Source: a virus
DNA length: 64,000 nucleotides
Direction: 5' to 3' (one strand)
IMG/VR virus record: IMGVR_UViG_3300017728_000002
Coordinates: 21,482-85,481 of that record
Part shown: in pieces, positions 3,946-54,876 of the stretch
Position numbering within the stretch: position 1 is the first letter of the stretch
How the letters are laid out: each line of letters begins with the position of its first letter
Translations under genes and position numbers: made by a program
Notes under the pieces: model-generated
Database searches by the model: none
What the model saw: the letters and a program-made list of their open reading frames with translations, nothing else
Told to the model about the DNA's origin: nothing

Positions 3946-3956
3946 ACAATTTAAGA

Positions 3957-3986
3957 TAGGGGGAGGGTCAAACAGGCTCTCCCCTA
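3957..3986 (+). terminator. GC-rich hairpin after MCP (terminator or mRNA-stabilising stem)
   Basis: TAGGGGGAGGGTC-aaaca-GGCTCTCCCCTA pairs with G-U pairs and one bulge; no clean U-tract. Confidence 0.6.
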
Positions 3987-4004
3987 TATCTAACAATCTA
4001 TTTC

Positions 4005-9296: not shown

Positions 9297-9314
9297 CCCC
9301 TAACTCTCTACACC

Positions 9315-27520: not shown

Positions 27521-29706
27521 GCATTTTTGACAAGTTCAAGGTCAACCCTTACATCAGTACGTATGCAGGGGCTCCTATTGGTGAGTTTAATCAGACGGCT
27601 GGCACGTTGCAACAACGTATGCTGTCTAACATCTCTAAAAGCAATGAGATTGAGCTGGCTATGGATCGATTACAGGCCAGTGGAGTAGATGAAGAGTTTA
27701 AGCGTCAGAAGATAGCGGAGTATGAAAAGCAGATTGATGAGATATCTGAAGCTCCAGAGTATGCTACTCAAAAAGTAATGGCTCTGGCACAGCGGTCTCA
27801 GATGGATGAGGACTTTAAGTTGATGGAAGCCAACGCAAAGCAAAAAGCAGCCATTGAAGCTGAAATGGCAGAAATGGATGTAACCGATCCACAGCGCTAC
27901 AAGTACCAACAACTGCTTGACAGCTACGAACAAGTTGATGAAGACGGAAAAGCAGGTGCTGCTGCAGGTCGCAAGTTTGGCTCAATCAATTTCTATGAAG
28001 AGCAAGTTCTGGGAGACTTGGTCGATGAGCGCGTAGATGGAATTCAAGCCATGAAAAGTGGATTTGCTACGATTCAAGATGATGGTACAATCCGTACAGA
28101 CAAGGGTGAGATTATTACTCAAGAACGCGTTATGCAAAGTGCCATGGGAGTACTCTCAGACGAGGCTGTAAAACGGCAAGTATCTGATGAAGTGGCTTTC
28201 CGTATGCGCGATCAGCTAGAAGGGCTTAGTCCGCAGGCCAAGCAACAAGCAATTGCTGCAGCTATGCCTCAATACTTCTTTGATCAATACGTCCAAGGAG
28301 CCATATCTAAGTATGCTCGAAAAGACCACATGTTTGATCTTAAAGGAGGGCGTAAAGAATTGGCAAAAGGATACAGCACTTCTGCAACAGGTGCTCCTAT
28401 GTACAGCTACGATTCTCAAGCTGTGGTGCAGAATCGATTAACGGATAAGGTCACAGATGCCAGGTCTTTTCTTGAAGAAGCTCTTGCTGTAGAAGAGCGT
28501 ATGAATACACCGTCTATAGAGTACGCTTCTCATACAGATGTAGTAGCCGATGAAAACTATAAAGCGCAGCTCAACACTATTTATGATGAAATGATAGAAA
28601 CGACTAAGGGGCTTTCTGGTCAATCTAAAAATGTCATGAGAAAGTTGTTTAGTGGGCCTGAGGGTTATCAAAAGTTGTATGATATGCAACGACAAGCCGG
28701 AAACGGTGCTCTTAGACAATTAACTCCAGAGGAAGCAGAAAGTGTTGATGCATTTAATCCTTTAGGCGCGATGAAGATGGCAACTGTAGAATTAGAGGGC
28801 GGTCCTCAAGGATACGGTTTAGATGCTATATACAAGGATATTAAGGCAGCGTATGCCGACGAATTCACTGAAAAACAAATGGCAAATGCTACAAAAGAAA
28901 TATACCGATGGAGTAGGGGTACTTGGTTGGGAGAAGACATGTCTAACCTAATTAAAAAAGGAGCAGGAGATGTCGCAATTGACTCTAAATATGTTACCCT
29001 GCCAGCCGAGCTTAATAAAGAATTGAATTTAGACGAATCTGCGCAAACCATATTTAATCAGTTTATAGCGGGCGACTTGGAAGGTGCTGTTTTACAGCAA
29101 GATATGGATTCAGGGCGTATGGTTCCAGTGACTAAAGACGACATGAGCACATATGACATGGGTTCTATGAAAGTGACAGGTTTAAACAAAACAGGAGCCC
29201 CAGGAACAATTCAAATCAGCATTAATGAACACGCTGATACAGGTACAGGTCCTCAAAAAACAATGCTTGTGAATTTGAATCAGTTCAATACTGACTTGTC
29301 TGCAAAAATGGCCAATCAGTTTAAGAAGGAGTCAATGAACAAGGGAGAAAACCAACAGCTCTTTAGCACCTTGGCATTTAATTTTGGGGAGCAAGAGCTG
29401 TTTACTAGCGCTCAAAAAGCTGTTAATGATGTTGGATCTAGTAAAGAGCCAATTCCAATTGCAGGCAAAGAAGTTCAAGCTCAGTACGCAACGGCATTAG
29501 GAACTAGTGCTTTGTACTTGATGTACGACCAGCCAAAGGGTGAATATTATGTAAGAAAAGAAAACGGAGAAATAATTGGCACTGTGGGCAACCGAAAGTT
29601 TAATCATAAAGATCATGCCATTTCTCATATGATTACAAAGGCTGGTGAAGCTTTGAATCCTAAGCCTAAAGGCAGGCAGAACAAAACCATAGTACCTAAA
29701 ACCTGA
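27517..29706 (+). CDS. Virion cargo protein
   Basis: N-terminal NPYISTYAGAP motif followed by long helices; lies between cargo genes and RNAP. Confidence 0.65.
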   Translation: MSIFDKFKVNPYISTYAGAPIGEFNQTAGTLQQRMLSNISKSNEIELAMDRLQASGVDEEFKRQKIAEYEKQIDEISEAPEYATQKVMALAQRSQMDEDFKLMEANAKQKAAIEAEMAEMDVTDPQRYKYQQLLDSYEQVDEDGKAGAAAGRKFGSINFYEEQVLGDLVDERVDGIQAMKSGFATIQDDGTIRTDKGEIITQERVMQSAMGVLSDEAVKRQVSDEVAFRMRDQLEGLSPQAKQQAIAAAMPQYFFDQYVQGAISKYARKDHMFDLKGGRKELAKGYSTSATGAPMYSYDSQAVVQNRLTDKVTDARSFLEEALAVEERMNTPSIEYASHTDVVADENYKAQLNTIYDEMIETTKGLSGQSKNVMRKLFSGPEGYQKLYDMQRQAGNGALRQLTPEEAESVDAFNPLGAMKMATVELEGGPQGYGLDAIYKDIKAAYADEFTEKQMANATKEIYRWSRGTWLGEDMSNLIKKGAGDVAIDSKYVTLPAELNKELNLDESAQTIFNQFIAGDLEGAVLQQDMDSGRMVPVTKDDMSTYDMGSMKVTGLNKTGAPGTIQISINEHADTGTGPQKTMLVNLNQFNTDLSAKMANQFKKESMNKGENQQLFSTLAFNFGEQELFTSAQKAVNDVGSSKEPIPIAGKEVQAQYATALGTSALYLMYDQPKGEYYVRKENGEIIGTVGNRKFNHKDHAISHMITKAGEALNPKPKGRQNKTIVPKT

Positions 29707-29745
29707 CCACTCTCTACCACCGGTCAATTCAGAAAAACTCTCTAC
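29704..29745 (+). promoter_or_regulatory. Leader element: hairpin with ACTCTCTAC loop + ATTCAGAAAAACTCTCTAC abutting the ATG
   Basis: TGACC-actctctaccacc-GGTCA, then an 18-nt core identical to 45930-45947 on the - strand. Confidence 0.7.
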
Positions 29746-32700
29746 ATGTCTGAAAACAACACTACTCCTGATTCTTCTTTTGAATCTCGTCAGGAAGACG
29801 CAGGGCTTACGCCTAAATCCAACATCCGTTTTGGCTTAAAACAAGACCCGCTCTATCAAGAGCAAGGGATGTTTCAAAGCCGTATGACCGAAAATCCGCA
29901 GGTCAAAGGAATAGACGTACAGAAGTATGCCCCTTACACAGGGTACATTACCCACCTTGGCACGCGTGATGCTATGCGGGCACGTGGTCAAAGCGTTGCA
30001 GAAAAGTGGGGCAATGGAATTTATCAAGCTGTAGTAGGCGAAGTAGTTGGGGGCAGTCTTCAAGGCTTAGGAGCCTTAGGTATGCTGGTTGACAGTGAGA
30101 AGAACTTTCTTTATGAGCTAGGTGAAGCCATCAATGAAGGAGCAAGAGACGCTACTCCTATTTATAAGCATAGCGACAAAGCGTTTGCGTTCAATGATGC
30201 TGGTTGGTGGGCCAGTAATCTGGGCAATATTCTTAGCACTGTAAGTATGTTGGTGCCAGGTATGGCAGTGTCCAAAGGTGCAAGTCTAGCTGCTCGAGGT
30301 CTTGTTGCAGCAGGTAAAGCTGGCAAGGCTGTTAAAGCAGGAAAAACCATTGGCAAAGCTGGAAAGGTTGCAGGTAAGGCTGCAGGTGAAGCTGCTGACG
30401 TTACTGCAGATGCTATGAAAGCTTCTGTGCGCGCACAGCGGCTAGAAAAAACCATGCAAACAGTTGCAGGTGGTTATGGCATGCGTCACGCTGAAAACAT
30501 TCGTGAAGGCGTAGATGTCGCTGTCCAAGCTGAGGAAGAGTTTATGCAAGATGGGCGGGCTTTAGAAGATTTTAAAGGGACTGTTGCGTACGATCAATAC
30601 CTCAAGGATCACGATCAGAAAGCGCCTATGAACAAGCAAGAGCTTGCTTCGTATGTCGGAGGTCAAGCAGCAGTGCGTTCGTATCAATTTAACATGTTGA
30701 ATCTGGTATTTGATGTGTTTCAAATGGGTACAATTTTTAAGCCCTTTAAAGCTGTAACGCGCGGTCAAGGTGTAGGTAAAGTAGGAGCTGCAGCCGCTGG
30801 TAAAGCAGCCGCTGGATTGGATAAAGGAACGCGTGCTACTCGAGCTTTAGAGAAAAGCAAAGGATTCTTAACTGAAGTGGGCAAAGCTGCTACAGAGGGC
30901 ATAGAAGAGTCAATCAACTTTATGGGAAGTGGCGAGGGCATGGCCCGTGCAGAATATTTAAGAGGGGTAGAGACTGGAAGCTTTGGAGAACGTCTTGACG
31001 ATTACTTCCACGACTCGCACTTGTATGAAAGTGCTTTCTGGGGTTTCCTTGGAGGAGGAGTGTTTCAAGGTCTTGGGTCCATTATGGGCAAGAAGCAAGA
31101 TGCTGCTATGACTTCTTTGCTTCGCCAGCAAGAAACCTTGGTTCGCGAAAGCGCAGAACTAGCCAAGGCTGAGAAAAGTGGCGATACAGAAAAAGCCAAT
31201 CAAATTCGAGCCAGGGTAATGGCTGATTTGGGCATCCGTGCTAGCCAATCTGGACGTGTAGATCAATTGCTAGATCAGCTCAATAGCGATGACTTCATGA
31301 AGCAGCTCCAAGAGCAAGGTCTGTTGGGCGAAAAGAGCATTGAAGAAGCTCGTAATGAACTGATTGAAGGCGTATTAAAGCAAGAAAAAGACTACAAGAA
31401 GATTGCTGAAGTTGCGGAAGAATACGGGTTGAGTAGTCAGGAAATGTTTGTCTTGCTTAAACAGCAGAACTCGTATGATGCTGGGTTAAAAAGCATTGCT
31501 GAGAAGCTTGAAGCAATTGACGATGCAAGCATTACTGAAGATCAAAAGCTTGCAGCTAAGTTTCAGCTGCGCGATTCGTTGGTTGAGCTTCAGAAGAAGG
31601 TAAAAAAGGAAAAGGGCAAAGACTCAAAGACTCCGTTTGGAGCAGAGTTAAAAGCGTTGCAGGAAGAGCTTAAAGACAAGGAGAAGCCTGCTGAGTTTGA
31701 GAAACTGCTGACCTACGAGGCTTTCAATCAAGCAAGGTTGTTGGCCGAACAAACCAGGTTAAAGCGAAAGCGTGCTGAGCTTACTACTGAACAGTCTCTT
31801 GCATATACTCGAACTACAGTAAATGCGTACAACAAGAATCAAGAAAAAGTCATTGCTGCTAGTTTCAAAAAGAGAGTTGCTGAAGAAGAAAATCTAGATA
31901 TTCTCAATAAACTTCTTGAACAGGCCAAACGAAATAAAGCTAAAGACCAGGAAATACTAATATCTGAGCGCATTGCTGAATTGAAAAAAACCAATGCTGA
32001 CAAAACAGATGCAGACAAAGCTCAAGAGGAAAATGAAGAAGGAGGTACTCCTGTACCTAAAGATGACTCTACTGAAGAAAATGAGCCTCCTACAGAAAAT
32101 GAACCTTCTAAAGAGAATGAGCCTCCTGAAGAGAATGATCCTGATGTAAGTGATGTTCTACCTGAAGGAGTAGTTCTCGAAGATGATGACGAGGTAGACT
32201 ACACCCTTGCTTATAGAGAGCCTTACGCTGATGGTTCTCCTTTTGATTTTGGTTCATTAACCAATCAGGAACGAAGGTTTTTAGATGCTTTAGATAACTT
32301 AGATACCGCTGAAACAGTGGAGAAAGCTCAAGCCCTTGTTTCTTTTGTACGCAACTACATTTTAAAGCAGCAAGAAGAAGGGAAGCCAATTAAACGCAAG
32401 TTTGATGGTAAAGTGGTTGACCAGGCTATTGCATATTTAGCAGAGGCTGAAAAAACTCCACCAGCTGCACCACAAGATTCTGCACCACAAGATTCTGCAC
32501 CACAAGATCCTACTTCGGACCCACCTACAGACCTACCTACAGATGACTTAGAGAATAGTACAGTCAAGGCTTTGAAAGCCATTGCTCGTCAAGAAGGGTT
32601 GACAGGTTATTCTAAGTTGAACAAGGCAGAGCTAGTTGCTGCTATTCGTGCACATCGTGAGCAAGCTACTTTGTTTCCTGAAAATAAAGTAACTCCACCT

Positions 32701-35700
32701 ACAGATGAATCGCCTGCTGAAAAGAAACGGAGAGAATCGCAGCAAAACCGTGTTGAGAAGCACAGCAAAGAACTTTATGAAGCGTTAGAAAGCTATGCAG
32801 AAGCTGTAGCTAATAGAGATGCACTTCAAGATTCTAAGAATGCAGATAGTAAGGAAGCTGTTGCTGCTGAACTAGCCGCAGACAAAGCGGCAATGAAAGT
32901 GTTAAATGCCTTAAATAATCTTACTAGTCACAGTCTGTTGTCTCAACAGAACAAAGTAGAAAGCTACATCTCTTCAGACTTACGTGAGTATATGGAGCTA
33001 GCTACAGAGACTTTAGAACAAGATGGTTACACTTCAGATCATGTAAAACCTGGTCAAGTATATGACGAAACGTTGTCGGTAGATGTGGAGATTGTTAACG
33101 ACGAAACTTTAGAGCCAGGAGTAGAACTTATTCAAAAAATTAATCAACCCGAAATACGTAAAAAAGGAAAGGTGATACAGCGTGGCCAAGTTGTTGTTGT
33201 ACAAGGGCCTTTGCTGAGTAAGCCAGTTATTGAACCAGAAACAGTTGAAGCTCCAGAAGGTCAGATCAAGATGATCATGAATGACTTGATGGAAGCGTTT
33301 TTGCAGCAGATGCAAATTCGCACAAGCGTAACCATGCCTACTACGCGTGTTAGGGAACACGCTCTTATTGAAGGGACTCGCTTGACTTTAGAAGGGCCGG
33401 TGGCAGAGCAGTATGAAGCGCTCATGTTTGCCTTGACTAACCCGTCAGCATCGGTTACAATTCGCATTTCAGACAATCAAGTAGAGGTCAAAAACCCCAT
33501 TTACAAAACATCGGTAAACAACAAGCTTGGGGTCAAATCTTTGACGCGAAAGACTGTTGGGTCAAAGACGTATACCTACGAAAACGAAGAAGACAACTCT
33601 CCTGACTACGAGGTTGTCGTTGAGTATCAGGGTAAAACTGTAGTCATTGGAAATGTACCTAGGGTGGGTACGTTGTTGAAGCAAGCTTCGCGTCTTCAAA
33701 ATCAATACCGCAATCAGCCAACAGGCGATGACGCAGACGCAAACCCATACTGGAGAAACGCATATGCAGATGCCAACCTCAATGCATTGCAAGCCATTAG
33801 ACATGCAGATGCGATAGCTCTATTTAGAAAATATCTGGATTCTCAAGACAGCGGATCTATCTCGTTTACTGGGTTGTCTGAGCAAATTGCCCTAGACGGC
33901 AGCTTTAAGCGCGGTAGTCTGCTTCGTCCTAGCGATCAAATGGATACGCTAAATATGCATCCAGAAGTCACAGATGCCATAGACGAACACGGGCTGTGCG
34001 TCATGATGACTGATCCTTCTAGTGGAGAGCCTTATCTGTTGAATCTAAAAACGGGTTTAAAGACTGCAGTACCATACCAAGATGGTGTGATGGCTATGAA
34101 TGCTCAAGCAGGGACTTATGCGTTTAAAAACCAGTCTAACAAGATCTCTAGTACCGGAGCAGTTTTCATTCCTATCCGAGATCCCAACTCACCTTTAAAG
34201 CCAATGTGGGTTCGCATGCCCGACATGACTTTGAAAGAGGCCAATCGTACCGACTTTGTAAGCAACATCTTGTACGGACCAGGCACTTCAGAACAAAAGT
34301 TTGAATTGCTTCGAAGTGTAATGTCTACACCGCCTCCAAGTGTGACATCTGAAAGTCAGATCATGGAAGGGTTCACAGGCGCAGCTTTTATAAGCGGACC
34401 GTCTAATGGACAACCTCGATTGGTTATTCTCAAAGACAGGAAGATTGTCATGGACTTTAATCCAGATGGCACGCCTCGCACTGAGATTCAAAAAGCTGTT
34501 CTTGAGCAGCTGAAGTTTAGGCTAGATGCAAAATCGCCCGAGCTTGCCAGCTACGAAAAAGAAGGAAAACGAGACGAGGAAACTAGGCAAACTTTAAAGT
34601 CGTTAGCTCAAAGCATTAAGCAAAACGGTAGAATGCCTATTGCTCCCGTTGTTAAAAAAGACAGTGCGGGTAATGATGTAATCATAGGCTACCACCATCC
34701 TGTTCCTGCTGCACGATTTGAACGAGACAGAGAAGCGCAATCTCAAAACCAACTGTTCAACCCAGAGGCTCAGAGTACCATGCTGCCTATTGCCATTGAT
34801 ATGGCACGTCTTCAAGCTCAAAACCCAGAAGCTCCTGCATCACCAGATACAAAACCTACAGACACTTCTGATCCGAAGAAGTCCAACGAAAAAGGGGGGG
34901 AGTCGACTGATTTTTGGAATGAATCAGATGACGGTGCAATGTTTATGACTGTAGAAAAGGCTTTAGCAAGCGACTTTTACGCCATGTCTACCTCTAAAGA
35001 TCAGTTAGAAGCGGAGTTGTGGCTTGCTAAAAACCTGCCTCACGTTCCGTTTCGAAGAGTCAAGGGCCTTATTGAACGTGGCGGTGTTACCGCATACGGT
35101 ATATGGGAACAGGGTATGATCAGGGTCAGTGATATATCTGTAGTAGGTACAGAGTATCACGAAGCCTTGCACGCTGTAATGGACACATACCTTTCTCCTA
35201 AGCGAAGAGCAAAGATTATGGCTGAAGCCCGTGCTAAGTATGGAGACTTAGGGCCTATCAAGCTAGAAGAAAAGATTGCTGAGGCTTTTCGAGAGTACAT
35301 GCTAACGGAAGGAAAAAGCATGACAGAGAAAAGTGCACTGCGCCGGTTTTTCTCTGAGATACTGGCATTGGTTCAAGCCATGTTCCAAGGACAATACCGT
35401 ACTCGGCAGTTGATGCAAAACATCAACAGAGGGAGGTATGCGTATAAGCCTAGCCAGCGCTCTAAAAACTTTCTGACTAAGTTCAGTAAGGTTCCTGCCT
35501 TTGATGCTGCTGAAATGAGCGAGCTAGAGCAGGTCATGCCTTTTTTGGTAAACTACATCCTTAAAGACATTCGTGAAGCATTTGTAGGGAACAATCCAAA
35601 AGACGTGCTTATGCGACGTTATGGAAGGGAAGAAGACGCCCAAGTACTTGAAGGATTGCTCCAAACGATAGCAGAGATTAAAGACTTGTCTGTAGAATCA

Positions 35701-38700: not shown

Positions 38701-41700
38701 GATCTAGGCCATACCAATCCTACCACAGATGCGGACTTAAAAGGCATGCGTGTAGTAGGAAGTCAGCAAGAAGTTGAAGGTCCTTACACTTGGGACGACT
38801 CTATGGCTACAGATTTAATTGTGGGGATGAATAACCGAGAGTTTGTAGTTGTAAAACTTGGAGAATCCCCAAAAACAGGTCGAGAACTAAATGCTGATGA
38901 TTTTTTAAATGGACTTAAAGAAGGTTTTGAAGTCATAGACATGCATGGTAAAAAGCCTATGACCGTAGGCTTAGATTCAGCCATGGCTTCGTTAATGAAG
39001 CGAGATTTTGAAAAATGGTTAACTACTAAGAAAAATCTTAAAACACGTCCACAATCATTAGTTACTCCAGAATATATCAGTGACTATTCAGACCCAAAGC
39101 GAGAGCTGGCTCGCTACGTAAAAGAGCGTCAAACGAATAGAAAAGACTTTGAAGTTGATCCTGAACTAGAGTTGGCTTATGAATACTATCGATCTAAAGA
39201 GATTGATTCAGATAGGAATAACGAGGCTTTTACGTCTTCTTCTTCTTCTCTGCCTACAGGACCAGAAAAAGTTGTAATGGCCGAGGTCAAGATGAACAGA
39301 AAGTTCTTGCCTAAGCAATACAGGGAAATGAGCATTGAAGAGATTCGTGCCATTGACCCTACACTGCTTGAAGTCATGGTCTATCGTGTTCCTGCAGAAG
39401 GAAAGAATTCTATGGCCATGTGTAAGGTGGTGCAGTTCTTGCCTTCAGGTCAAGACGGCATGGTCATCCCCGCAGCTTTTGTAGCTCAAATGGGATCAGA
39501 CTTTGACATTGACAAGCTCTTTGTGAATTGGAAGAAGGTGCCTAGGGAAGGCAGAGAGCTCAATGCTTACGACCGAGCAGCCAATAAGTTTTTTGATTTA
39601 CAGAAGGATGTGCTGATGAATCCTGAAGTGGTAAAGACAGAAGTGCTTGTACCACAGGGCTTTGAAACCATTAAGGCGTTTCGTACGGAGATGGCTACTG
39701 CCCGCAGGAAAGGAGGGGTTTCAGACATTGATGTCTTTGCTCAAAGACGTCCGTATAGTGCTTTGACTCACTTGCAATTGTGGTCAGACAATGTAGCAGG
39801 CATTGGATTGAAAGGCATTGCTGCCAACAACAATACGTTTTGGATGAAAGTCCAACGTCACAACATGCAAGTGGAAGGAATTCCTATGAAGGATATGCCG
39901 CTTGAGTTGATGCAATGGAATGCAGAAGCAGTAGCTGCTTCTATGGACGGCGCAAAAGACCCTGTCTGGGGTACTATGGGCATTGACCGCAAGAACTTCT
40001 CGTTCTTCATGTACGAGTGTACCATGGGGTACATGCGGGCAATGAAAGAGAACCCAAGTGCAGACAAGGTTAAAACCTTGAATAAAGCTCGAAATGAAGC
40101 ATTAGCGGCAGCAACTGATTCAGATGTTATGCAAGCCATGACCACACGGGTTAATGACTTTAATGCAGAAACAGAAAAGACAGACAACGTAAAACGGTAT
40201 CAGGCTTATTTAAAGCAAGAGGCATACCGGGCGTTGAAAGACTTGACCCGTGTCAGTGAGATGAAAATCAATAAGGAGTTGATTGATCTTCTTGCAGCTA
40301 AAGAGCCCGTTCTAGATAATTATAACCTTACTCTAGACGCTGAAGGCAATATTATTTTAGACAGCGATGGTAACCCAGAGTTGCAAGCGGTAAAAGACGC
40401 CAAAGGAAACACTCTTCCAACCATGGGAAAGGCTTATGTCAATGCTCCTGTCATTAAAGGCGCTTTGGATATTGCCACTGCTTCAGAGTTGCTGATGAGT
40501 GGCGGTATGGGGATTCACTATTACCGCACTGTAGGTCGTTATAACGGCATCAGTTTCCCGCAATACTGCGCGGTTCAAACCTTTAAAGCAGCTGATGAAT
40601 TTGTAGAAGGCAAGCGCGCAGAGGTCATGGGTGAGAGAAGCGTCAGTGAGCGTTTTAGAGAAGTGGACCTAGAGGATGTTCAGTCTTGGAACATGCGTCA
40701 TTGGATCGTTTGGTTGAATACATCTGACGAAGGCCGAGCAATTCGAGACGACAAAGACAACGCGTTCTTGCGTAAGATGCTCTTGCATATCACGGTAGGC
40801 CGAGCCTACGAAGTAAACTACAATCGTTACGATCGGATAACGCCAATCCAGCTTAACGACCCTATCAAAGCAGAAGAGTTTCAAAAGGCTTGGGAAAACA
40901 CATTGACTCCGCCTTTATCCTATGAAGGGTCTGTTCACTACCCTTCTGAGTTTGCCAAAGCCTTAGTTCGCTACGAAGCTGCACGCAGTGGGTGGAGACG
41001 AGGGTCTTCAACCTTCACGCAGTTCTTGCCTACGGAGATTGTAAAAAATGTAAGCGGAGAGGACGCTACATCCTTGCAGATTGCAGCTCATGCTGTGTTG
41101 GATTCTAGGGTAGAGTCCGGTACAGAAAAAATGGCTTTGCTCAGCAACAGGCCTATGCGCTATGGTAAGCACACTTACGTGACTTTGCCTGGCGAAAACA
41201 GGCGGACAAAAGTGACCACTCCTGTTTTGATGCTTGGGTTCAGAGGCATGTCATCTATAGATGCTATTGCAGGTGAGTTGCAGGTCAACCAATCCACTGT
41301 AGAGGAAGAGATAGCTGAGTACAAAGCCAAGCAAAAGAAGAGTCAAAGCCTTGAAGCATTTGGAGATATTGCTTCATCTACTACTACTTCTGAGCGCATT
41401 GCTATGCTTCAGAGTCGGTTTGCTTCTTATGGTATTAAGGTAAGAGTGGAGTTTGATTCCACTTTAGAAGGTGCCGGTGATGTGCAGTACGATAAGGAGT
41501 CTGGGGTCATTCGACTCCACCCTGATCGCATGAAAAGCGATACGGTCTTGCACGAGTTTGGTCACATCTACATTGAGATGTTGGGGTTTGAAAACCCTGC
41601 TGTTCAGCAAGCCATTGAAGAGTTGCGCAACACTGAGCTGTATCGAGAGGTAGCAGAGATGTATCCACACTTAAGTCAAAGAGACTTAGATATGGAGGTT

Positions 41701-44700
41701 TTGGCTACAGCTATAGGTCTTGAAGGAGACGCCATCTATGACAAGGCTAAGAACCCCAACAAGCTTCGTACCCTGATCAATAAACTCTTTAGGGCTTTAG
41801 GTAAGTTGTTTGGTATCCAGCCTAACACCGCTCGGGAGTTGGCACGTAAGATGATTGAAGGGTCTGATGTTAGGACCAACAACTTAAAGTCATTCCGTGC
41901 AGAGCAACGATTGAAGAAAGGTTTGGATGCTCAGACCCTAATGATTGAGGTAGCTGATGAGATTATGAACCGCATCGATCATATGCGGCGATTGGGTGCC
42001 ACTACCGAGGAGCAGCAAGTGCTTCTAGACAGCTTGCAAGAGGACTCTAGTATGTTTAGAGAAGTAGCAGAAAGTGGAGCTACAGCTGTATTGGATTCTC
42101 TGGTGGTTGCAATGTCAGACTACTTGCAAAAAACTACTGAGTTTATCTCTCATGCGGAAACATATGTAGACACTTCTTCAGCAGCCGGGCTTAAAAAGCA
42201 AGACACTGAATTGTTGAACCAGGCGTATCAGCTGAGTCAAGTGCTGAATACGTTTTCTCAAACGTTTGCCAGCTTTGATAAAGACACTGTAGATGTAGAT
42301 TTTGATCAGCAAGAGCGGTTTGCAACAACCAACAAAGCTTTTGTGGAAATGGCAGGTCCTGTTCAGGTTATGCAAACCCGCTTGACCAGCTTGGTACGTA
42401 AGATGCTGAACAAAAAGCTGGTGGCTAATTCTAGTAACCCTAGGATCAAAGAAGCCATGGAAGCAGGGTTGGACATTTTCTCTTTGGCTCAAACTGAATT
42501 TGGCGACATCACTACCGATACTTCTAAAGGAGAAGTGCAGTTTATGGGATTGCTCGATCAAGACTCTAATGCTGTGCTTACTCTGTTTGGTAAGACTTTG
42601 CGTGATGTAGTCAACACCGAAGAGCTGCAGAGTAAGCAAGACATTCAAAAGCTTTACTCTATCCTAGATGACTTTGAAAGTCAGGGAGGATCTATCGAAT
42701 CTCTTTTAGATGAAGATGGTCAAAGCTTTGTGAGTCCTTATCGAGATGCATTTTATTCAGCTCAATCCAAAGCAACCAACCGTCGCAAGTGGAGAGCAAT
42801 GAACATGGAGCAGAAGTATGTAGAGTCTTACTACCTCGAGCATGTTTACTCTAAAGACCACAAAGACATCAAAGTACTCAAAGAAGAGATTGCTAGGTAT
42901 GAAGAGGGAGCCAGGGCAGGCACCCTTACAGAAGCAGATAAGCTTCATTTAGACCAGCTTCAAGAAGACCTGGCAACCAGAGAGCAATCTCTAGAGAGTT
43001 TTAAAAAATACCATGAACCTGTCTGGGACTTAGAGAAGTTTGAAAAGGACAAAGCAGATGCTGAATCGCAAGGGCCAGATGTAGCAGCAGCTTGGAAAGC
43101 AGCGTATGTGCACTCCAGCGGCAAGCCTAAGTTCAACAGTCCTTACTACAAGACTTCTAAGGTGAAAGACAAGTTCTTGAATCCTAAATGGACAGGGACA
43201 GACATGCCTAAAGCCAAATGGTTAAACCCGAAAGCAAAGGAGTTATCTCCTCTGCAGCAAGAGACCATTGAAGCTTTGAAAAATCTGATGAAAAATGCTG
43301 TAGGGTTTGAAGATCACCGGATGTTCAACGAGAGTTTGATTCCTCAGATTGAAAACCCAGAATCTAAAAGCCTAACAGAAGTATTGCGTGACATGCCACG
43401 TGAAGCCCTAGAGACAAACAAAGACACGGCTCGCATGGGCACAGATAGTGAAGGGCGGAAGATCTTCTTGCGTGGAGGGTTGAAGCACAGCAGGCGAAGT
43501 GATGGGTTAGTTTCTACAGACTTAAGAAAAACCATCGCTCAGTTTGTTGTAGAGGCTAGGGCTGCTAAAGCTGCCAATAACATTGAGACGTTCTCTTTGA
43601 TGACTCGCGATGAGCTTGGTCGTATGGAGCTAACTGCTCGAAAAGGTTGGAGTATGGGTAGGGTAGATGGTAAGCGCTTGAACTTAAACGACAACAAACG
43701 CGCTGGAACCATCAAAGGAGACCGGAGTAACTCTATGGATGTAATAGAGCATGTCTTAGAAGGTTACTTAGGGCAAGGGTGGCAAACTACAGGTAAGTAT
43801 GACTCTCAAGCCGCTCTTCTGCAGAGCTATATTTCGTTCCAAGGTATTGGCTTTAACCCTTCGGCATGGGTCAACAACATCATGTATGGTGAGCTTATGC
43901 AAATCTTGGATGCCGTTGGAGGAGATATGTATACAAGTGAGAGCTTGAACTTGGCTAAGAAACAGGTATACGCAGGCATTAGAGACCTGGCGTTAGCTCG
44001 CGACAAAGGCACCAAGCCAAAAACAAGGTTGGCTGCGGTCATGCACTTCTTTGATGCAACCATGGATCAAAGGGAATTGCCTGAGACCAGCGAGTTGCTA
44101 GACAAGTTCTATAACCTGGCATACATCGGTCAAAGCTTTGGTGAGCTGTTGATGCAAAGTCAAGTTGTCCTTGCTATGATGTATGATACAAAAGTGAAGC
44201 TGGACACTGGAGAGACTGTTAACCTCTATGAAGCCTTGACTTGGGACGGAGAAGCCCGAGGTATTGGGTTTAAGGCAGGTAAAGTCATTCGCAAAGACGG
44301 CACTCTGGTTGATTTAGACATAAACTACCTCGGCTCCTTTAAGACCAAAGCTGTAAATGTGCTGCAACGCATTCATGGATCTTATAACGCAGAAGATATG
44401 GGTCGGTTCCATCGCATTGCTGTAGGTAGGCTCGTGCTTCAATTCCGTAAATGGATGCCTCAAGCTTTGAAAAAGCGTTTTGGAGCTGATCGGTTTAGTG
44501 AAGTACGTGAAACTGAGGAGATAGGATATTACCGTGCGCTTTGGGACAAGATTATTGTTCCTGGGGTGATGGGCAACGTAGACGACGCAAAGCGGTTTAG
44601 GTTCTATGCTACCTATCAAAGCCAACCACCGCATGTCCAGAAGGCCATCAAACGAGCTGCCATTGAGATGGGGCTGGGAGTGTCAAGTGCAATCCTTAGT

Positions 44701-45093
44701 TACGTTCTTGCGTCATTGATTGAAGTAGATTCAGATGAAGAAGACGAGTTCTTCCTGTTGAATGACGCGTACTACAAAGCCAAGCTCTTGTACCACACAG
44801 AACGCTTAAACCAAGAGCTTGTGGCATATACTCCTTGGGGTATGTACGATACGGCTTTGAGGATTGGTCAAGACCCTGCAGCTGCTTCTAGACAGCTTAA
44901 GACGATGTTCAAGTTTATGCAACAAGCCGTCTATGGATTGGCTCCTGGCGTAGAGTTGGAGCGCTTTAAAGGCGGACGCAATTATGGTGATCTGAAGATC
45001 AGTACGTATGCTTTACAGCTATTGCCGCTTCTTAAGCAAGCTCTTCGTGAGATGAATACCATCTCAAGCCATACGATCTATAAGTTGAGTTAA
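29746..45093 (+). CDS. Giant virion RNA polymerase polyprotein (5115 aa) with two zincin-like HExxH domains and Rho-N-like and GrpE-like inserts
   Basis: Catalytic GSDFDIDKLF (39499-39513) preceded by YRVPAEGKNSM; DAQSYVT, KPFYFG, SAHKVG, DGAKDP; HEALH at 35158-35172 and HEFGH at 41551-41565; C-terminal RIHGSYN...GRLVLQFRKWM. Confidence 0.93.
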   Translation: MSENNTTPDSSFESRQEDAGLTPKSNIRFGLKQDPLYQEQGMFQSRMTENPQVKGIDVQKYAPYTGYITHLGTRDAMRARGQSVAEKWGNGIYQAVVGEVVGGSLQGLGALGMLVDSEKNFLYELGEAINEGARDATPIYKHSDKAFAFNDAGWWASNLGNILSTVSMLVPGMAVSKGASLAARGLVAAGKAGKAVKAGKTIGKAGKVAGKAAGEAADVTADAMKASVRAQRLEKTMQTVAGGYGMRHAENIREGVDVAVQAEEEFMQDGRALEDFKGTVAYDQYLKDHDQKAPMNKQELASYVGGQAAVRSYQFNMLNLVFDVFQMGTIFKPFKAVTRGQGVGKVGAAAAGKAAAGLDKGTRATRALEKSKGFLTEVGKAATEGIEESINFMGSGEGMARAEYLRGVETGSFGERLDDYFHDSHLYESAFWGFLGGGVFQGLGSIMGKKQDAAMTSLLRQQETLVRESAELAKAEKSGDTEKANQIRARVMADLGIRASQSGRVDQLLDQLNSDDFMKQLQEQGLLGEKSIEEARNELIEGVLKQEKDYKKIAEVAEEYGLSSQEMFVLLKQQNSYDAGLKSIAEKLEAIDDASITEDQKLAAKFQLRDSLVELQKKVKKEKGKDSKTPFGAELKALQEELKDKEKPAEFEKLLTYEAFNQARLLAEQTRLKRKRAELTTEQSLAYTRTTVNAYNKNQEKVIAASFKKRVAEEENLDILNKLLEQAKRNKAKDQEILISERIAELKKTNADKTDADKAQEENEEGGTPVPKDDSTEENEPPTENEPSKENEPPEENDPDVSDVLPEGVVLEDDDEVDYTLAYREPYADGSPFDFGSLTNQERRFLDALDNLDTAETVEKAQALVSFVRNYILKQQEEGKPIKRKFDGKVVDQAIAYLAEAEKTPPAAPQDSAPQDSAPQDPTSDPPTDLPTDDLENSTVKALKAIARQEGLTGYSKLNKAELVAAIRAHREQATLFPENKVTPPTDESPAEKKRRESQQNRVEKHSKELYEALESYAEAVANRDALQDSKNADSKEAVAAELAADKAAMKVLNALNNLTSHSLLSQQNKVESYISSDLREYMELATETLEQDGYTSDHVKPGQVYDETLSVDVEIVNDETLEPGVELIQKINQPEIRKKGKVIQRGQVVVVQGPLLSKPVIEPETVEAPEGQIKMIMNDLMEAFLQQMQIRTSVTMPTTRVREHALIEGTRLTLEGPVAEQYEALMFALTNPSASVTIRISDNQVEVKNPIYKTSVNNKLGVKSLTRKTVGSKTYTYENEEDNSPDYEVVVEYQGKTVVIGNVPRVGTLLKQASRLQNQYRNQPTGDDADANPYWRNAYADANLNALQAIRHADAIALFRKYLDSQDSGSISFTGLSEQIALDGSFKRGSLLRPSDQMDTLNMHPEVTDAIDEHGLCVMMTDPSSGEPYLLNLKTGLKTAVPYQDGVMAMNAQAGTYAFKNQSNKISSTGAVFIPIRDPNSPLKPMWVRMPDMTLKEANRTDFVSNILYGPGTSEQKFELLRSVMSTPPPSVTSESQIMEGFTGAAFISGPSNGQPRLVILKDRKIVMDFNPDGTPRTEIQKAVLEQLKFRLDAKSPELASYEKEGKRDEETRQTLKSLAQSIKQNGRMPIAPVVKKDSAGNDVIIGYHHPVPAARFERDREAQSQNQLFNPEAQSTMLPIAIDMARLQAQNPEAPASPDTKPTDTSDPKKSNEKGGESTDFWNESDDGAMFMTVEKALASDFYAMSTSKDQLEAELWLAKNLPHVPFRRVKGLIERGGVTAYGIWEQGMIRVSDISVVGTEYHEALHAVMDTYLSPKRRAKIMAEARAKYGDLGPIKLEEKIAEAFREYMLTEGKSMTEKSALRRFFSEILALVQAMFQGQYRTRQLMQNINRGRYAYKPSQRSKNFLTKFSKVPAFDAAEMSELEQVMPFLVNYILKDIREAFVGNNPKDVLMRRYGREEDAQVLEGLLQTIAEIKDLSVESDEDGNTIEIQREKKKLIAEGIIRVIFDSRGLFQYMIKSSSRASEERKLEIYDRLGHNEEVLVEHFSTNPRVQRMIMQAIAIDASTGTTDIEQNFSASIAEINPMDKVPASIKNLISRTIYIPGDRSGRLIETILGNQGTEAALEAIAEVSGTDVDKSDAFSRFGLPRFLQFETVYPFLLNQLSSLPSYEAMETRMLELSVYNPSLASIVLALRKDAEPGTLTELQKQFYVGMKRASSEELNVSLETQYDERVERKFQVPVVKDEFIYEPAWHLVQRNKEAVYNAILQFTPAEKEKVLNALSALAKQRNETPEVRVKTIKILVRTFQKLEFSTMDPSALANAMHVMSNNELGGLADMLERLILAGNEAQTSAILREVVRIMKLADADMGAVQSSYMSNLKTKYAHVNPSYLTEELDRLKSAFKEEYLKERFAHNAHLEESMWHIMLDEESLTYRRFGQLGPHAYTDMDVAQRLEYDLLALFRMGKNAQGRQIRVTGYSAIPTPSDATGSFMVSNDFVHYPENVKNRILASIYDAETRKDVTHMSLPIDRSKVDINSIESKAEYMRALLEQEAAALLSIPEFKEVIDKLQVPLGYGPVEGRSRDEGRVTMVNSYVAATYVSNWNVSNWMGGTIDHFGGDVTKYQKRFKQIMSPGQTSADKGTFRNVTIEDPVVFEDWATEVEYSDNGKPVKNADGTYRRIPSAIDRADAQSYVTLDFWERMLSSHGELTDYKKAVIEKARKGEALSVSERSVFAPYKPFYFGWVQGQPHQLKNSVIPLLPPVKGQAPISVELEAMRKWMVHPDNKVDQITLKSAHKVGVTSKATSMFQDGKFKAPEPGYTQYDLPMEFHRNQVSITEHNNHNGTVGLGTQTGPIIMSNLRNYEGLGEVHIQKLLKTEQRMMNMKLKELKGKLFVQGTELGKNGEEDVSKRTVPDVARVRQYVLDNVRDDVHPAVLEILSSPLASAGRISPLVAFAVNQTLAAAVQKDFKKQKVTGGMQVQISDLGHTNPTTDADLKGMRVVGSQQEVEGPYTWDDSMATDLIVGMNNREFVVVKLGESPKTGRELNADDFLNGLKEGFEVIDMHGKKPMTVGLDSAMASLMKRDFEKWLTTKKNLKTRPQSLVTPEYISDYSDPKRELARYVKERQTNRKDFEVDPELELAYEYYRSKEIDSDRNNEAFTSSSSSLPTGPEKVVMAEVKMNRKFLPKQYREMSIEEIRAIDPTLLEVMVYRVPAEGKNSMAMCKVVQFLPSGQDGMVIPAAFVAQMGSDFDIDKLFVNWKKVPREGRELNAYDRAANKFFDLQKDVLMNPEVVKTEVLVPQGFETIKAFRTEMATARRKGGVSDIDVFAQRRPYSALTHLQLWSDNVAGIGLKGIAANNNTFWMKVQRHNMQVEGIPMKDMPLELMQWNAEAVAASMDGAKDPVWGTMGIDRKNFSFFMYECTMGYMRAMKENPSADKVKTLNKARNEALAAATDSDVMQAMTTRVNDFNAETEKTDNVKRYQAYLKQEAYRALKDLTRVSEMKINKELIDLLAAKEPVLDNYNLTLDAEGNIILDSDGNPELQAVKDAKGNTLPTMGKAYVNAPVIKGALDIATASELLMSGGMGIHYYRTVGRYNGISFPQYCAVQTFKAADEFVEGKRAEVMGERSVSERFREVDLEDVQSWNMRHWIVWLNTSDEGRAIRDDKDNAFLRKMLLHITVGRAYEVNYNRYDRITPIQLNDPIKAEEFQKAWENTLTPPLSYEGSVHYPSEFAKALVRYEAARSGWRRGSSTFTQFLPTEIVKNVSGEDATSLQIAAHAVLDSRVESGTEKMALLSNRPMRYGKHTYVTLPGENRRTKVTTPVLMLGFRGMSSIDAIAGELQVNQSTVEEEIAEYKAKQKKSQSLEAFGDIASSTTTSERIAMLQSRFASYGIKVRVEFDSTLEGAGDVQYDKESGVIRLHPDRMKSDTVLHEFGHIYIEMLGFENPAVQQAIEELRNTELYREVAEMYPHLSQRDLDMEVLATAIGLEGDAIYDKAKNPNKLRTLINKLFRALGKLFGIQPNTARELARKMIEGSDVRTNNLKSFRAEQRLKKGLDAQTLMIEVADEIMNRIDHMRRLGATTEEQQVLLDSLQEDSSMFREVAESGATAVLDSLVVAMSDYLQKTTEFISHAETYVDTSSAAGLKKQDTELLNQAYQLSQVLNTFSQTFASFDKDTVDVDFDQQERFATTNKAFVEMAGPVQVMQTRLTSLVRKMLNKKLVANSSNPRIKEAMEAGLDIFSLAQTEFGDITTDTSKGEVQFMGLLDQDSNAVLTLFGKTLRDVVNTEELQSKQDIQKLYSILDDFESQGGSIESLLDEDGQSFVSPYRDAFYSAQSKATNRRKWRAMNMEQKYVESYYLEHVYSKDHKDIKVLKEEIARYEEGARAGTLTEADKLHLDQLQEDLATREQSLESFKKYHEPVWDLEKFEKDKADAESQGPDVAAAWKAAYVHSSGKPKFNSPYYKTSKVKDKFLNPKWTGTDMPKAKWLNPKAKELSPLQQETIEALKNLMKNAVGFEDHRMFNESLIPQIENPESKSLTEVLRDMPREALETNKDTARMGTDSEGRKIFLRGGLKHSRRSDGLVSTDLRKTIAQFVVEARAAKAANNIETFSLMTRDELGRMELTARKGWSMGRVDGKRLNLNDNKRAGTIKGDRSNSMDVIEHVLEGYLGQGWQTTGKYDSQAALLQSYISFQGIGFNPSAWVNNIMYGELMQILDAVGGDMYTSESLNLAKKQVYAGIRDLALARDKGTKPKTRLAAVMHFFDATMDQRELPETSELLDKFYNLAYIGQSFGELLMQSQVVLAMMYDTKVKLDTGETVNLYEALTWDGEARGIGFKAGKVIRKDGTLVDLDINYLGSFKTKAVNVLQRIHGSYNAEDMGRFHRIAVGRLVLQFRKWMPQALKKRFGADRFSEVRETEEIGYYRALWDKIIVPGVMGNVDDAKRFRFYATYQSQPPHVQKAIKRAAIEMGLGVSSAILSYVLASLIEVDSDEEDEFFLLNDAYYKAKLLYHTERLNQELVAYTPWGMYDTALRIGQDPAAASRQLKTMFKFMQQAVYGLAPGVELERFKGGRNYGDLKISTYALQLLPLLKQALREMNTISSHTIYKLS
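32465..32508 (+). repeat. 15-bp tandem repeat (CTGCACCACAAGATT)x3 encoding SAPQD in an RNAP linker
   Basis: Read directly from the sequence. Confidence 0.9.
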
Positions 45094-45590
45094 CCTATAG
45101 AGCGTGTGTCTAGAATGACAGGAGCTGATTGTTTAAGGACTTTCTCAATGTCGTAGACTTTAAAGTCCATCTTAAACGGGGTGTCTAAAAGAAAGTCGCT
45201 CATGTATGATATGAATTCCTTTCTGCTGGGAGCAATGTAAGTGCAGGTAAAGTTGACAGACGTACTGAGCTCTGGCGTCTGTCGCTTAAGTTTCATGATC
45301 TCAATGCACCAGTTTTGTCCTATAAGCTTGTCTTGTAGGGTGCTGGCTTCAACATCGTTTACGATGATTTCTACTTTACAACTAAACTCGAAACCAAAAA
45401 ATTTGTGGTTGATGTGACATTGGGGAGTACTGATGGCTCCTTTTTCAAACAGTGCGCGGACCCTCATTAAAGTAGGACCTGGACTAAGACCTACAGATTT
45501 AGCAAGGTCTTGGTTTGAAATGCTGGCGTCTTTCTGTAACACGTTGATTAGTTCAATGTCAGTGGAATCGATGTTTTTCTTCCTAGGCAT
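45090..45590 (-). CDS. Lrp/AsnC family transcriptional regulator
   Basis: IDSTDIELINVLQKDASISNQDLAKSVGLSPGPTLMRVRALFEKGAI HTH followed by a RAM-like C-terminal domain; ATG at 45590 preferred over TTG at 45605. Confidence 0.88.
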   Translation of the reverse strand: MPRKKNIDSTDIELINVLQKDASISNQDLAKSVGLSPGPTLMRVRALFEKGAISTPQCHINHKFFGFEFSCKVEIIVNDVEASTLQDKLIGQNWCIEIMKLKRQTPELSTSVNFTCTYIAPSRKEFISYMSDFLLDTPFKMDFKVYDIEKVLKQSAPVILDTRSIG

Positions 45591-45692
45591 GAACCAAATA
45601 TGCAAAATAAACTTGCGTTTTGCTCGGGGATGTCCACAGACCTTAAGAAAAAATACCTTAAAACGGGTATTTATTTGCCTGTAAGCGAAATA

Positions 45693-45917
45693 TTATTTTG
45701 TTTCCACGTATTTGATAAGCAAATTCAGGTAATGTTGGGCCTTGTGTAAGTCTTCTACACCTCCTTTGGCTTTGTACCTCGACACGTACTTAATGATGTT
45801 CCCTTCTATGAATCCCATGCCATTGGCGAGGATGTACTCTATCGGAGGAATCTTAAGGTCGTAATGGTTCCCTCCAACTTGAGTGGTTTGCTCTAACTTT
45901 GGGACGTGCTTAGGCAT
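45693..45917 (-). CDS. DUF3310 family protein
   Basis: QVGGNHY...PIEYILANGMGFIEGNIIKYVSRYKAKGGVEDLHKAQHYL. Confidence 0.92.
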   Translation of the reverse strand: MPKHVPKLEQTTQVGGNHYDLKIPPIEYILANGMGFIEGNIIKYVSRYKAKGGVEDLHKAQHYLNLLIKYVETK

Positions 45918-45973
45918 GTAGAGAAATTTTAGAGAGTTTTTCTGAATAGGGGAGGAAGTAGAGAGCCTCCCCT
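45918..45973 (-). promoter_or_regulatory. Leader element: 8-bp hairpin with CTCTCTAC loop + ATTCAGAAAAACTCTCTA + TTCTCTAC-ATG
   Basis: Minus strand reads AGGGGAGG-ctctctactt-CCTCCCCT-ATTCAGAAAAACTCTCTAAAATTTCTCTAC-ATG. Confidence 0.7.
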
Positions 45974-48150: not shown

Positions 48151-48154
48151 TGAT

Positions 48155-48196
48155 GTAGAGAGTGAAATGGGAGCAGGATTTCTCCTGCCCCCCATT
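48155..48196 (-). promoter_or_regulatory. GNRA hairpin followed by ACTCTCTAC box
   Basis: Minus strand AATGGGGGGCAGGA-GAAA-TCCTGCTCCCATT-tc-ACTCTCTAC-atca-ATG. Confidence 0.65.
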
Positions 48197-49352: not shown

Positions 49353-49355
49353 TTG

Positions 49356-51539: not shown

Positions 51540-51904
51540 AGAGAGTAATTCAATTGTGGATCTGGTATATCCGTATTCATGTATTCAGCAGCCCATTGTC
51601 GGATGCTGTCGATATAGGTTTTAAAACGATTCTTGGTCATTTCAGTCGTGCTCATGATTCTCATGCCAAGCACAATTCCGTCATCTTGTATTAGGTCGCC
51701 TAAAGCAAAATTTGCTTTGAGCCAGTTGTGTGTGTCAGTGTATGTAAGAGGTGCAGGAACAGCACCTTCAATAATTGTAGAGCGATCCCACCCGTGGTCA
51801 GTTAACGTTGAGCAAACGATCGGGACTACGATTTTCCAGTAGTACCGGTTCTGTGCTGAAGTGCGCTTTGTATCCGGGGTGGTCTCTAAGGAGTTGTCGG
51901 TCAT
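51536..51904 (-). CDS. NinB/DUF1367-like recombination protein
   Basis: KRTSAQNRYYW, HNWLK, STTEMTKNRFKTYIDSIRQWAAEYMNTDIPDP; start uncertain. Confidence 0.72.
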   Translation of the reverse strand: MTDNSLETTPDTKRTSAQNRYYWKIVVPIVCSTLTDHGWDRSTIIEGAVPAPLTYTDTHNWLKANFALGDLIQDDGIVLGMRIMSTTEMTKNRFKTYIDSIRQWAAEYMNTDIPDPQLNYSL

Positions 51905-53410: not shown

Positions 53411-53440
53411 GTAGAGAGTTGTAGAGAGTTGTAGAGAGAG
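53411..53440 (-). repeat. 10-bp tandem repeat (AACTCTCTAC)x~3 immediately before the primase ATG
   Basis: Plus strand gtagagagtt gtagagagtt gtagagagag. Confidence 0.9.
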
Positions 53441-53449
53441 AGTAGGTAA

Positions 53450-53529
53450 GAGGGGGGCCTTTGCCGCCCCCCTCCGTCCTAAGGTTTCACGTAATGCGAA
53501 ACTCCCATCACACTATTCGGTGTAACGAG
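53450..53529 (-). promoter_or_regulatory. Three consecutive hairpins in the primase leader
   Basis: Minus strand CTCGTTACAC-cgaata-GTGTGATGGG; GTTTCGC-attac-GTGAAAC; GAGGGGGGC-ggcaaag-GCCCCCCTC. Confidence 0.6.
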
Positions 53530-54860: not shown

Positions 54861-54876
54861 TTTAAATTTTAGAGAG

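Follow-up and report, generated by a model that had tools for sequence, protein, structure and literature searches.

A guanine-free box before the start codons of a marine phage, most likely a common control of translation or of transcript starts

A short box with the consensus (A)ACTCTCTA(C/A), free of G, lies on the sense strand 0 to ~20 nucleotides (nt) before start codons in the genome of a marine phage, where it is a real, selected cis-element and most likely a common switch that acts on translation or on where transcripts start. The stretch of DNA analysed (the window; 64,000 nt) corresponds to bases 21482-85481 of the 85,481-bp virus record IMGVR_UViG_3300017728_000002, which has a 123-bp terminal repeat; the whole phage genome, G000, is the window plus L132, and "genome" positions below refer to the full record. 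A first-pass annotation of the window had described two leaders 16 kb apart, before a giant RNA polymerase (RNAP) gene and a DUF3310 gene, as one architecture consisting of a hairpin with the box in its loop, an identical 18-mer and an ATG. These two look-alike leaders are the most elaborate copies of the phage-wide box, and the notion of a single two-leader architecture fails because the box precedes ~15 genes, mostly hairpin-free.

Judged by its sequence, the phage is crAss-like, and crAss-like phages are among the most abundant viruses known. Its major capsid protein is ~32% identical to crAss-like phage capsids, and its gene order is that of crAss-like phages, with a + strand structural arm that ends in an open reading frame (ORF) of 5115 amino acids (aa) and converges on a - strand replication arm. 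Closer relatives are carried by 212 IMG/VR contigs, and one relative is a prophage in Zeaxanthinibacter (Flavobacteriaceae), inside a 1.6-Mb contig (L106). The comparisons below use four near-complete relatives of 60-89% identity, with capsids 75-89% identical (G001-G004), and a sister phage (L215; G+C 45%, 21 kb compared) whose primase is 77% identical to that of G000. A nucleotide search of GenBank phages gave no match to the window, and protein-seeded searches with the RNAP N-terminus and the rIIA-like protein gave no close relatives. No Shine-Dalgarno site was found at any start codon of the phage, as is expected of a Bacteroidota host.

The box is linked to gene starts and to the coding strand

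CTCTCTA occurs in 29 exact copies in the genome, 15 of which precede 13 called starts by at most 25 nt on the coding strand (baseline 1.3%, P ~2e-21). All 12 copies of the 8-mer CTCTCTAC in the genome are on the gene-sense strand, ten of them in the leaders listed below and two just 3' of alternative ATGs (genome 6203 and 9205); the window holds nine copies where 2.0 are expected, a count reached in none of 100 shuffles. The box 6-mers are enriched 15-23 fold in upstream windows. The ~15 genes served by the box include the giant RNAP, DUF3310, DnaA_C-like, rIIA-like, rIIB-like, primase and AAA_24 genes, and further a kinase-like gene, an amidase gene (with one box mismatch), several small unknown genes and two structural-arm genes.

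In the commonest arrangement the box directly abuts the ATG, and box-to-ATG spacing is 1-14 nt. Boxes are also found within tight or overlapping junctions, in the end of the upstream ORF (19338, 49365 and 51545); copies stand on both sides of the ATG at genome 9216/9196 and 6218/6188, and 5 of ~16 leaders have a second box at -21 to -39. A helical phasing of multi-copy boxes was considered and dropped: of the spacings (10, 10, 20, 21, 28, 29 and 39 nt), turns of 10.5 nt account for the short ones alone.

A host-wide signal was rejected, AACTCTCTAC being at the level of the reversed control in 401 Flavobacteriaceae genomes and in three genomes with related prophages. Standard scans across 44-56 kb showed no enrichment of sigma-70-type promoters or T-run terminators, Rfam 15 gave no match at gathering score anywhere in the window, and the literature on crAss001 and on Antarctic viromes contained nothing on such a motif. 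A seawater metatranscriptome run of complementary DNA yielded four contigs of 162-220 nt, all inside genes and with no transcript ends.

The RNAP and DUF3310 leaders

The two most elaborate leaders and the genes between them are as follows (window coordinates, here and below unless stated otherwise).

29704..29726, + strand: distal hairpin of the RNAP leader, stem TGACC (29704-29708) / GGTCA (29722-29726)
29727..29754, + strand: proximal part of the RNAP leader, 18-mer ATTCAGAAAAACTCTCTA (29727-29744), then C and ATG at 29746
29746..45093, + strand: giant ORF of 5115 aa, putative virion RNAP polyprotein by its DFDID motif and position
45090..45605, - strand: gene of an AsnC/Lrp-type helix-turn-helix (HTH) protein, 171 aa
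45693..45917, - strand: DUF3310 gene, 74 aa, absent from G001-G004
45918..45973, - strand: DUF3310 leader, with hairpin, 18-mer, middle box, proximal box and ATG at 45917

The letters of the window confirm both hairpins and the identical 18-mer at the coordinates first given for them. The distal hairpin of the RNAP leader, whose stem begins with the TGA that ends the upstream 729-aa gene, has a 13-nt loop that carries the box CTCTCTAC at 29710-29717; it is weak (-4.3 kcal/mol, with 13 of 200 shuffles folding equally well), and its box is loop-located in all three window sizes of the folding test described below. A second CTCTCTAC at 29738-29745 abuts the ATG at 29746, and a possible pairing of UUCAGA (29728-29733) with UCUGAA (29749-29754) would place this proximal box and the AUG in a 15-nt loop. 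The DUF3310 hairpin (45973-45948), with arms AGGGGAGG (45973-45966) and CCTCCCCT (45955-45948) around the loop CTCTCTACTT, is stable at -13.6 kcal/mol, and 4 of 200 shuffles are as good. It is followed by the 18-mer copy at 45947-45930, then AAATTTCTCTAC and the ATG at 45917; this stretch contains a middle box, CTCTCTAA (45936-45929), and a proximal box, TTCTCTAC (45925-45918), which abuts the ATG.

Neither the window nor the full 85,481-bp genome contains an exact copy of the 18-mer beyond these two, and its six exact matches in IMG/VR are all unrelated and due to chance; a search for relatives with the box plus the first RNAP codons gave no match. ATTCAGA recurs in a third leader of G000, at genome 11218, and the 15-mer AACTCTCTAAAATTT, said to be common to the DUF3310 and AAA_24 leaders (54878-54864), is indeed present in both.

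The giant ORF follows tail genes, the same place as in crAss-like phages, and carries GSDFDIDKLF at residue 3252, DFDID being the motif used by the virion RNAP of phage phi14:2. In Pfam it matched Rho_N only, in a Rho_N-like segment at residues 934-968, and a sequence search of the PDB gave no match to any solved structure, that of the phi14:2 RNAP included.

Boxes are kept at the gene junctions of a sister phage

In the 21 kb of L215, ten sense copies of the box are found against one antisense copy, at the same gene junctions as in G000. Boxes at orthologous junctions are identical between the two phages, spacers have diverged and copy numbers have changed: the AAA_24 leader has one box in G000 and two tandem boxes in L215, and the primase leader is rearranged in L215, where CTCTCTAC-ATG is kept (as it is in L216) and the upstream copies differ. 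The CTCTCT-ATG of the rIIA-like gene is identical.

Hairpins that display the box are conserved as well. The DUF3310-type hairpin and its loop box are 100% identical in L215, in which a 9-codon ORF (MPSKSTKQR; L215:17441-17530) takes the place of DUF3310 and the Lrp-like gene comes 130 nt further on. The 21-nt hairpin before the rIIB-like gene is identical, within an otherwise diverged coding 3' end, and the DnaA_C-like leader has an equivalent stem, AAUCCA/UGGAUU, whose arm sequences differ from those of G000. The loops of box-free hairpins changed between the two phages. In contrast, the 18-mer does not survive as a conserved unit: the nine bases that follow the DUF3310-type hairpin read CTAAAAGAT in L215 in place of ATTCAGAAA in G000, with AACTCTCTAAA kept, and the DUF3310-side copy of L215 matches at 12 of 18 positions. 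With the 18-mer not conserved in L215, the matching pair within G000 is best taken to reflect recent copying.

The box was not found in G001-G004, despite the same junctions and the retention of some hairpins. The RNAP genes of these four phages are without such a leader, and DUF3310 and the Lrp-like gene, the latter present in both box users, G000 and L215, are also missing. Conservation of loop and stem, which had been proposed as a check on the two leaders, is thus absent in G001-G004 and holds in the closest relative.

Loop display exceeds chance in a minority of leaders

At three window sizes, 8, 5 and 6 of 24 leader boxes fall in the hairpin loops of minimum-free-energy folds, against null means of 1.2-1.4, the observed counts being reached in 0, 2 and 0 of 200 shuffles. 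The stems that enclose these loop boxes have unrelated sequences, and the boxes are unpaired in nearly all folds. Display of the box in a loop is, in these predicted structures, a real but minority feature. Loop enrichment and the conserved DUF3310-type hairpin fit single-stranded recognition, so that an RNA operator and a single-stranded DNA (ssDNA) promoter are both possible. These were the two roles first suggested for the leaders; a selected box, loop display above chance and a DUF3310-type hairpin kept in L215 speak for the suggestion, and most copies being hairpin-free speaks against it.

Other box-bearing leaders

Further leaders with the box are listed below.

48151..48195, - strand: leader of the DnaA_C-like HTH gene; T-run-free G/C-rich hairpin, box CTCTCTAC at 48162-48155, ATG at 48150
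49353..49392, - strand: leader of the rIIB-like gene; hairpin TGACG[ATCTCTAC]CGTCA at 49392-49375, box CTCTCTAT at 49365-49358, ATG at 49352
51537..51545, - strand: start of the rIIA-like GHKL ATPase gene; CTCTCT runs straight into the ATG, within the terminal part of the upstream ORF
53408..53475, - strand: leader of the primase (Toprim) gene; G/C-rich hairpin, three tandem boxes, ATG at 53410
54858..54878, - strand: leader of the AAA_24 gene; box directly after the stop codon of a DnaB-like gene (CATAACTCTCTAAAATTTAAAATG)
9302..9317, + strand: leader of a 264-aa structural-arm gene; box AACTCTCTAC 3 nt before the ATG
19336..19354, + strand: leader of a 153-aa gene; box CTCTCTAC within the upstream ORF's 3' end, leaving 6 nt to the ATG

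The rIIB-like leader is the third with the same loop display as the RNAP and DUF3310 leaders; its hairpin is embedded in the rIIA-like ORF, at the 3' end, 21 nt upstream of the proximal box. The rIIA/rIIB-like pair (48207-51539, - strand) consists of a 727-aa GHKL ATPase (HATPase_c) followed by a 381-aa protein with PHROG RIIB matches down to 5e-37. In the DnaA_C-like leader a CCAUU/AAUGG pairing is possible, which would make the AUG part of the stem and leave the box in the loop. The three tandem boxes of the primase leader have a 10-nt period (53438-53431, 53428-53421 and 53418-53411), and the last abuts the ATG. A T-run terminator follows the 264-aa gene, and box-like variants are found at the junction of this gene in relatives.

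Several genes are followed by hairpins (53448-53475, 48169-48195 and 3950-4000) with a G-rich 5' arm, a C-rich 3' arm and mostly no T-run, which the standard terminator scan missed. The position of the hairpin before the primase gene is kept down to 50% protein identity. In one relative, L135, only 8 nt separate the end of the primase hairpin from the ATG, and the primase must hence be read from a transcript that contains the hairpin. At L132:9170-9245 (- strand) a hairpin of -16 kcal/mol pairs AUGGUGUGGGG with UUCUCUACACCAU and buries the box and the start codon of a 73-aa gene, which has a second box after its ATG. This hairpin (genome 9216) sits directly downstream of an early-type motif, and the box there, being 3' of the motif, should be transcribed.

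Other motifs and genome context

The early-type motif, approximately (G)GTGTCTAAAAAGAAG(G/A)CTTT, is repeated in eight copies before small genes in L132:9255-13384 (- strand), a likely early region, and one copy is directly upstream of a box-bearing leader. A different, clade-wide leader box, TATAACCCTTAAT (L003-L082 and G001-G004), precedes the capsid gene and others. CCCTTAA occurs in 31 of 912 upstream windows, a 29-fold enrichment, with composite forms such as TTCTCTAACCTTTAAT; the capsid gene of G000 has TATAACCTTTAAT at 2493-2505. A tyrosine integrase gene (L132:15717-16790) is located where the two arms diverge and, taken with the Zeaxanthinibacter prophage, suggests that this crAss-like lineage may be temperate.

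Regulation at the messenger RNA level as the leading interpretation

Among the interpretations weighed here we rank first, though tentatively, a regulon in which the box is a translational operator or enhancer at the level of the messenger RNA (mRNA). We infer an action on RNA, an effect on translation and the existence of a trans-acting factor. This factor would recognise the sequence of the box in single-stranded mRNA and would most likely be a protein of the phage itself; extra copies, whether in tandem or displayed in a loop 20-30 nt upstream, would raise affinity, and through the AUG-abutting copy the factor would govern translation initiation across all genes of the set. Such a mode would be akin to T4 RegA or to CsrA-type two-site operators, in a host group that does without Shine-Dalgarno pairing. 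In a sub-variant, the box would be a direct, factor-free enhancer that recruits the ribosome. The RNA-level interpretation is favoured because it explains the loop display, the conserved loops, the tandem and AUG-flanking copies, the coupled junctions and the L135 hairpin; it explains more details than a promoter does, and the two remain close.

A near parallel, the translational repressor RegA of T4, is one phage factor that acts on many mRNAs, rIIB and replication messages among them, by way of a short site overlapping or adjoining the AUG; the box resembles that site in standing at most 25 nt before 13 called starts, most often abutting the ATG, and in serving rIIA-like, rIIB-like, primase and other replication genes. 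Unlike RegA sites, which are AU-rich, poorly conserved and not loop-displayed, the box is an exact CU-rich 9-10-mer that often occurs in several copies, and no Pfam or PHROG match to a RegA homologue was found in the phage proteins scanned. With the operators of CsrA/RsmA and of the MS2/PP7 coat proteins the leaders share a loop motif on variable stems together with a second site at the start, and a start codon in or beside a weak hairpin. The GGA core of CsrA/RsmA sites is, however, missing, as loops and start-proximal sites read CUCUCUAC, with no G; and unlike the single replicase operator of MS2/PP7 there are ~15 targets here, with most copies hairpin-free. No CsrA was matched by Pfam among ~50 phage proteins scanned, and CsrA is not known from Bacteroidota.

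Several observations weigh against an RNA-level regulon. Only a minority of boxes are in loops, several stems are weak (4-6 bp), and the DnaA_C-like hairpin of G000 competes with an extension of the upstream hairpin. The evidence of conservation comes from one sister lineage, a single evolutionary sample. No RNA-binding domain was found among the ~50 phage proteins (by Pfam, and for some also by PHROGs). Finally, start-abutting promoter elements are normal in this phage group, and the box shares the skeleton TA-nn-TnTn-TA with the phi14:2-type/TAnnTTTG promoter element.

Candidates for the partner of the box were also considered. The Lrp-like protein is kept only as a lead, because its co-occurrence with the box amounts to a single lineage and its fold is DNA-binding. 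The DnaA_C-like protein was rejected as binder, its recognition helix being the same in box-using and box-free phages, as was a phage anti-box small RNA, there being no sense-strand seed of the GUAGAGAG type outside the boxes' own complements. Pairing with the 16S ribosomal RNA was examined in the 16S gene ends of 20 Flavobacteriaceae (L112-L131), where UAGAGA, complementary to the box core UCUCUA, follows CCUCCUUUC in 16 of 20 and CUAGAG in 20 of 20, and where AGAG comes next after the gene end CACCTCCTTTCT in all 20 genomes and AGAGA in 16 of them. The mature 16S 3' end of F. johnsoniae is reported to be U1544 (PMC13000457, PMC7797042). The pairing was rejected, since UAGAGA lies beyond this mature end and the geometry misfits AUG-abutting boxes; no accessible complement of the box was found in a flavobacterial 16S.

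A promoter or a passive leader as alternatives

The strongest alternative, possible but on balance unlikely, is that the box works as a promoter element in DNA, corresponding to the Bacteroidota -7 box but with altered specificity, and yields leaderless or very short-leader mRNAs. Host RNAP, with a phage factor or an unusual sigma, would start at or next to the ATG; an upstream copy 28-29 nt away would be a -33-like element or a second promoter, and the hairpins would serve the upstream gene, by ending its transcript or stabilising it. The mapped middle promoters of phi14:2 are a precedent, with TTTG-N~20-TAnnTTTGTA followed by 2-5 nt and the ATG (g070, g110 and g093) or by 22-29 nt, and in relatives (G002-G004 and phi14:2, L214) the gap between an upstream TAnnTTTG box and the ATG is 4-7 nt in 30 of 39 cases, which implies that leaderless messages are a routine design in these phages. 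In G000, TAnnTTTG is ~3.5-fold depleted (18 copies against 64 in the reversed control), with only one near a start, whereas it is not depleted in G001-G004; G000, without canonical start-abutting TAnnTTTG boxes, therefore needs some other promoter. The box consensus nA-AC-TCTC-TA parallels TA-nn-TTTG-TA, and the switch of the box at many junctions together between G001 and G000 is like that of phage-specific promoters. In four leaders the box comes after the hairpin, with only 18-41 nt remaining before the ATG.

The likeness to the Bacteroidota -33/-7 promoters (TTTG / TAnnTTTG) is thus one of position directly before the ATG, of a TA-nn-YYYY-TA skeleton and, in some leaders, of a second related motif ~28 nt upstream. 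Against it, the box has TCTC where the -7 element requires TTTG, its spacing is broad (1-14 nt), and the commonest arrangement, direct abutment, falls 1-3 nt short of the canonical geometry. No -33-like element is shared by most leaders, nor was any TTTG/TTG element ~20 nt upstream shared among the box leaders, and Pfam found no sigma factor among the ~50 phage proteins. The box genes are functionally mixed (lysis, replication, virion), and a promoter leaves no role for the loop enrichment, the post-ATG copies or the -16 kcal/mol hairpin of box and AUG.

We consider it rather unlikely that the box, read on ssDNA or RNA and best bound when shown in a loop, would be the missing recognition signal of a crAss-type expression machine, that is, either the promoter of the giant virion RNAP or a substitute for Shine-Dalgarno sites on phage messages. 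Improbable too, in our estimation, is the narrower proposal of an ssDNA promoter for the crAss-type virion RNAP, in which the box would be exposed in extruded loops or transient single strands as in phage N4. The phi14:2 RNAP, gp66, for which no promoter has been reported, transcribes single-stranded or denatured DNA in vitro and double-stranded DNA hardly at all; the giant ORF has the DFDID motif, and the boxes are strand-specific, loop-enriched and placed before genes. N4 likewise has a virion-borne RNAP that prefers single-stranded templates and a promoter motif on a DNA hairpin, but its T7-like enzyme reads promoters with stems of 5-7 bp and loops of 3 nt that serve few early genes, in contrast to the loops of 8-15 nt, the non-early gene set and the RNAP of crAss two-barrel type found here. 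Most boxes, moreover, are without a hairpin, the genes they precede (the RNAP itself, structural-arm and lysis genes) do not make up an early set, the likely early cassette region is marked by a different repeated motif, and both middle and late genes in phi14:2 depend on host RNAP.

Slightly less probable still is a passive leader, in which a G-free, A-flanked box with no dedicated factor merely keeps initiation regions unstructured and has spread by slippage or recombination as a mobile cassette, the 18-mer identity being a recent gene-conversion tract. The promoter-early stem-loop (PeSL) cassettes of T4-type phages are mobile modules of a stem-loop and a signal that lie between genes, border accessory genes and carry sigma-70-type early promoters; they resemble the leaders as repeated stem-loop modules in which recombination could explain identical tracts at distant loci, and differ from them in the promoters they carry. 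In line with this idea, boxes are unpaired in nearly all folds, G000 and L215 differ in the number of tandem 9-10-nt units, L215 has not kept the 18-mer, and DUF3310 and Lrp form an accessory insertion at the convergence point that begins with this leader. An exact 9-10-mer, all 12 of whose 8-mers are sense and start-near, nevertheless exceeds what low structure needs, and hairpins with loop boxes are conserved.

Almost no weight can be given to the earlier suggestion that the 18-mers, an exact inverted pair, are crossover sites of an invertible 16-kb RNAP-Lrp-DUF3310 segment: half of the 18-mer is the genome-wide box, so that the repeat is largely explained without inversion, there is no adjacent invertase (the only recombinase found, the tyrosine integrase, is ~35 kb from the RNAP-side and ~50 kb from the other 18-mer), the L215 DUF3310-side copy matches at only 12 of 18 positions, and the homologous junctions of relatives are without such leaders or such a repeat.

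Significance for crAss-like phages

How the virion RNAP of crAss-like phages finds its genes, and how their messages are translated without Shine-Dalgarno sites, are poorly understood, and to our knowledge virion RNAP promoters have not been found in any crAss-like phage. This lineage offers a short, sharp cis-element with ~15 targets in loop-displayed and tandem variants, together with a natural contrast, as sister phages with and without the box share gene order. Were the box to act on RNA, Bacteroidota would gain their first described phage translational regulon; were it a promoter, it would represent a new specificity class that yields leaderless messages.

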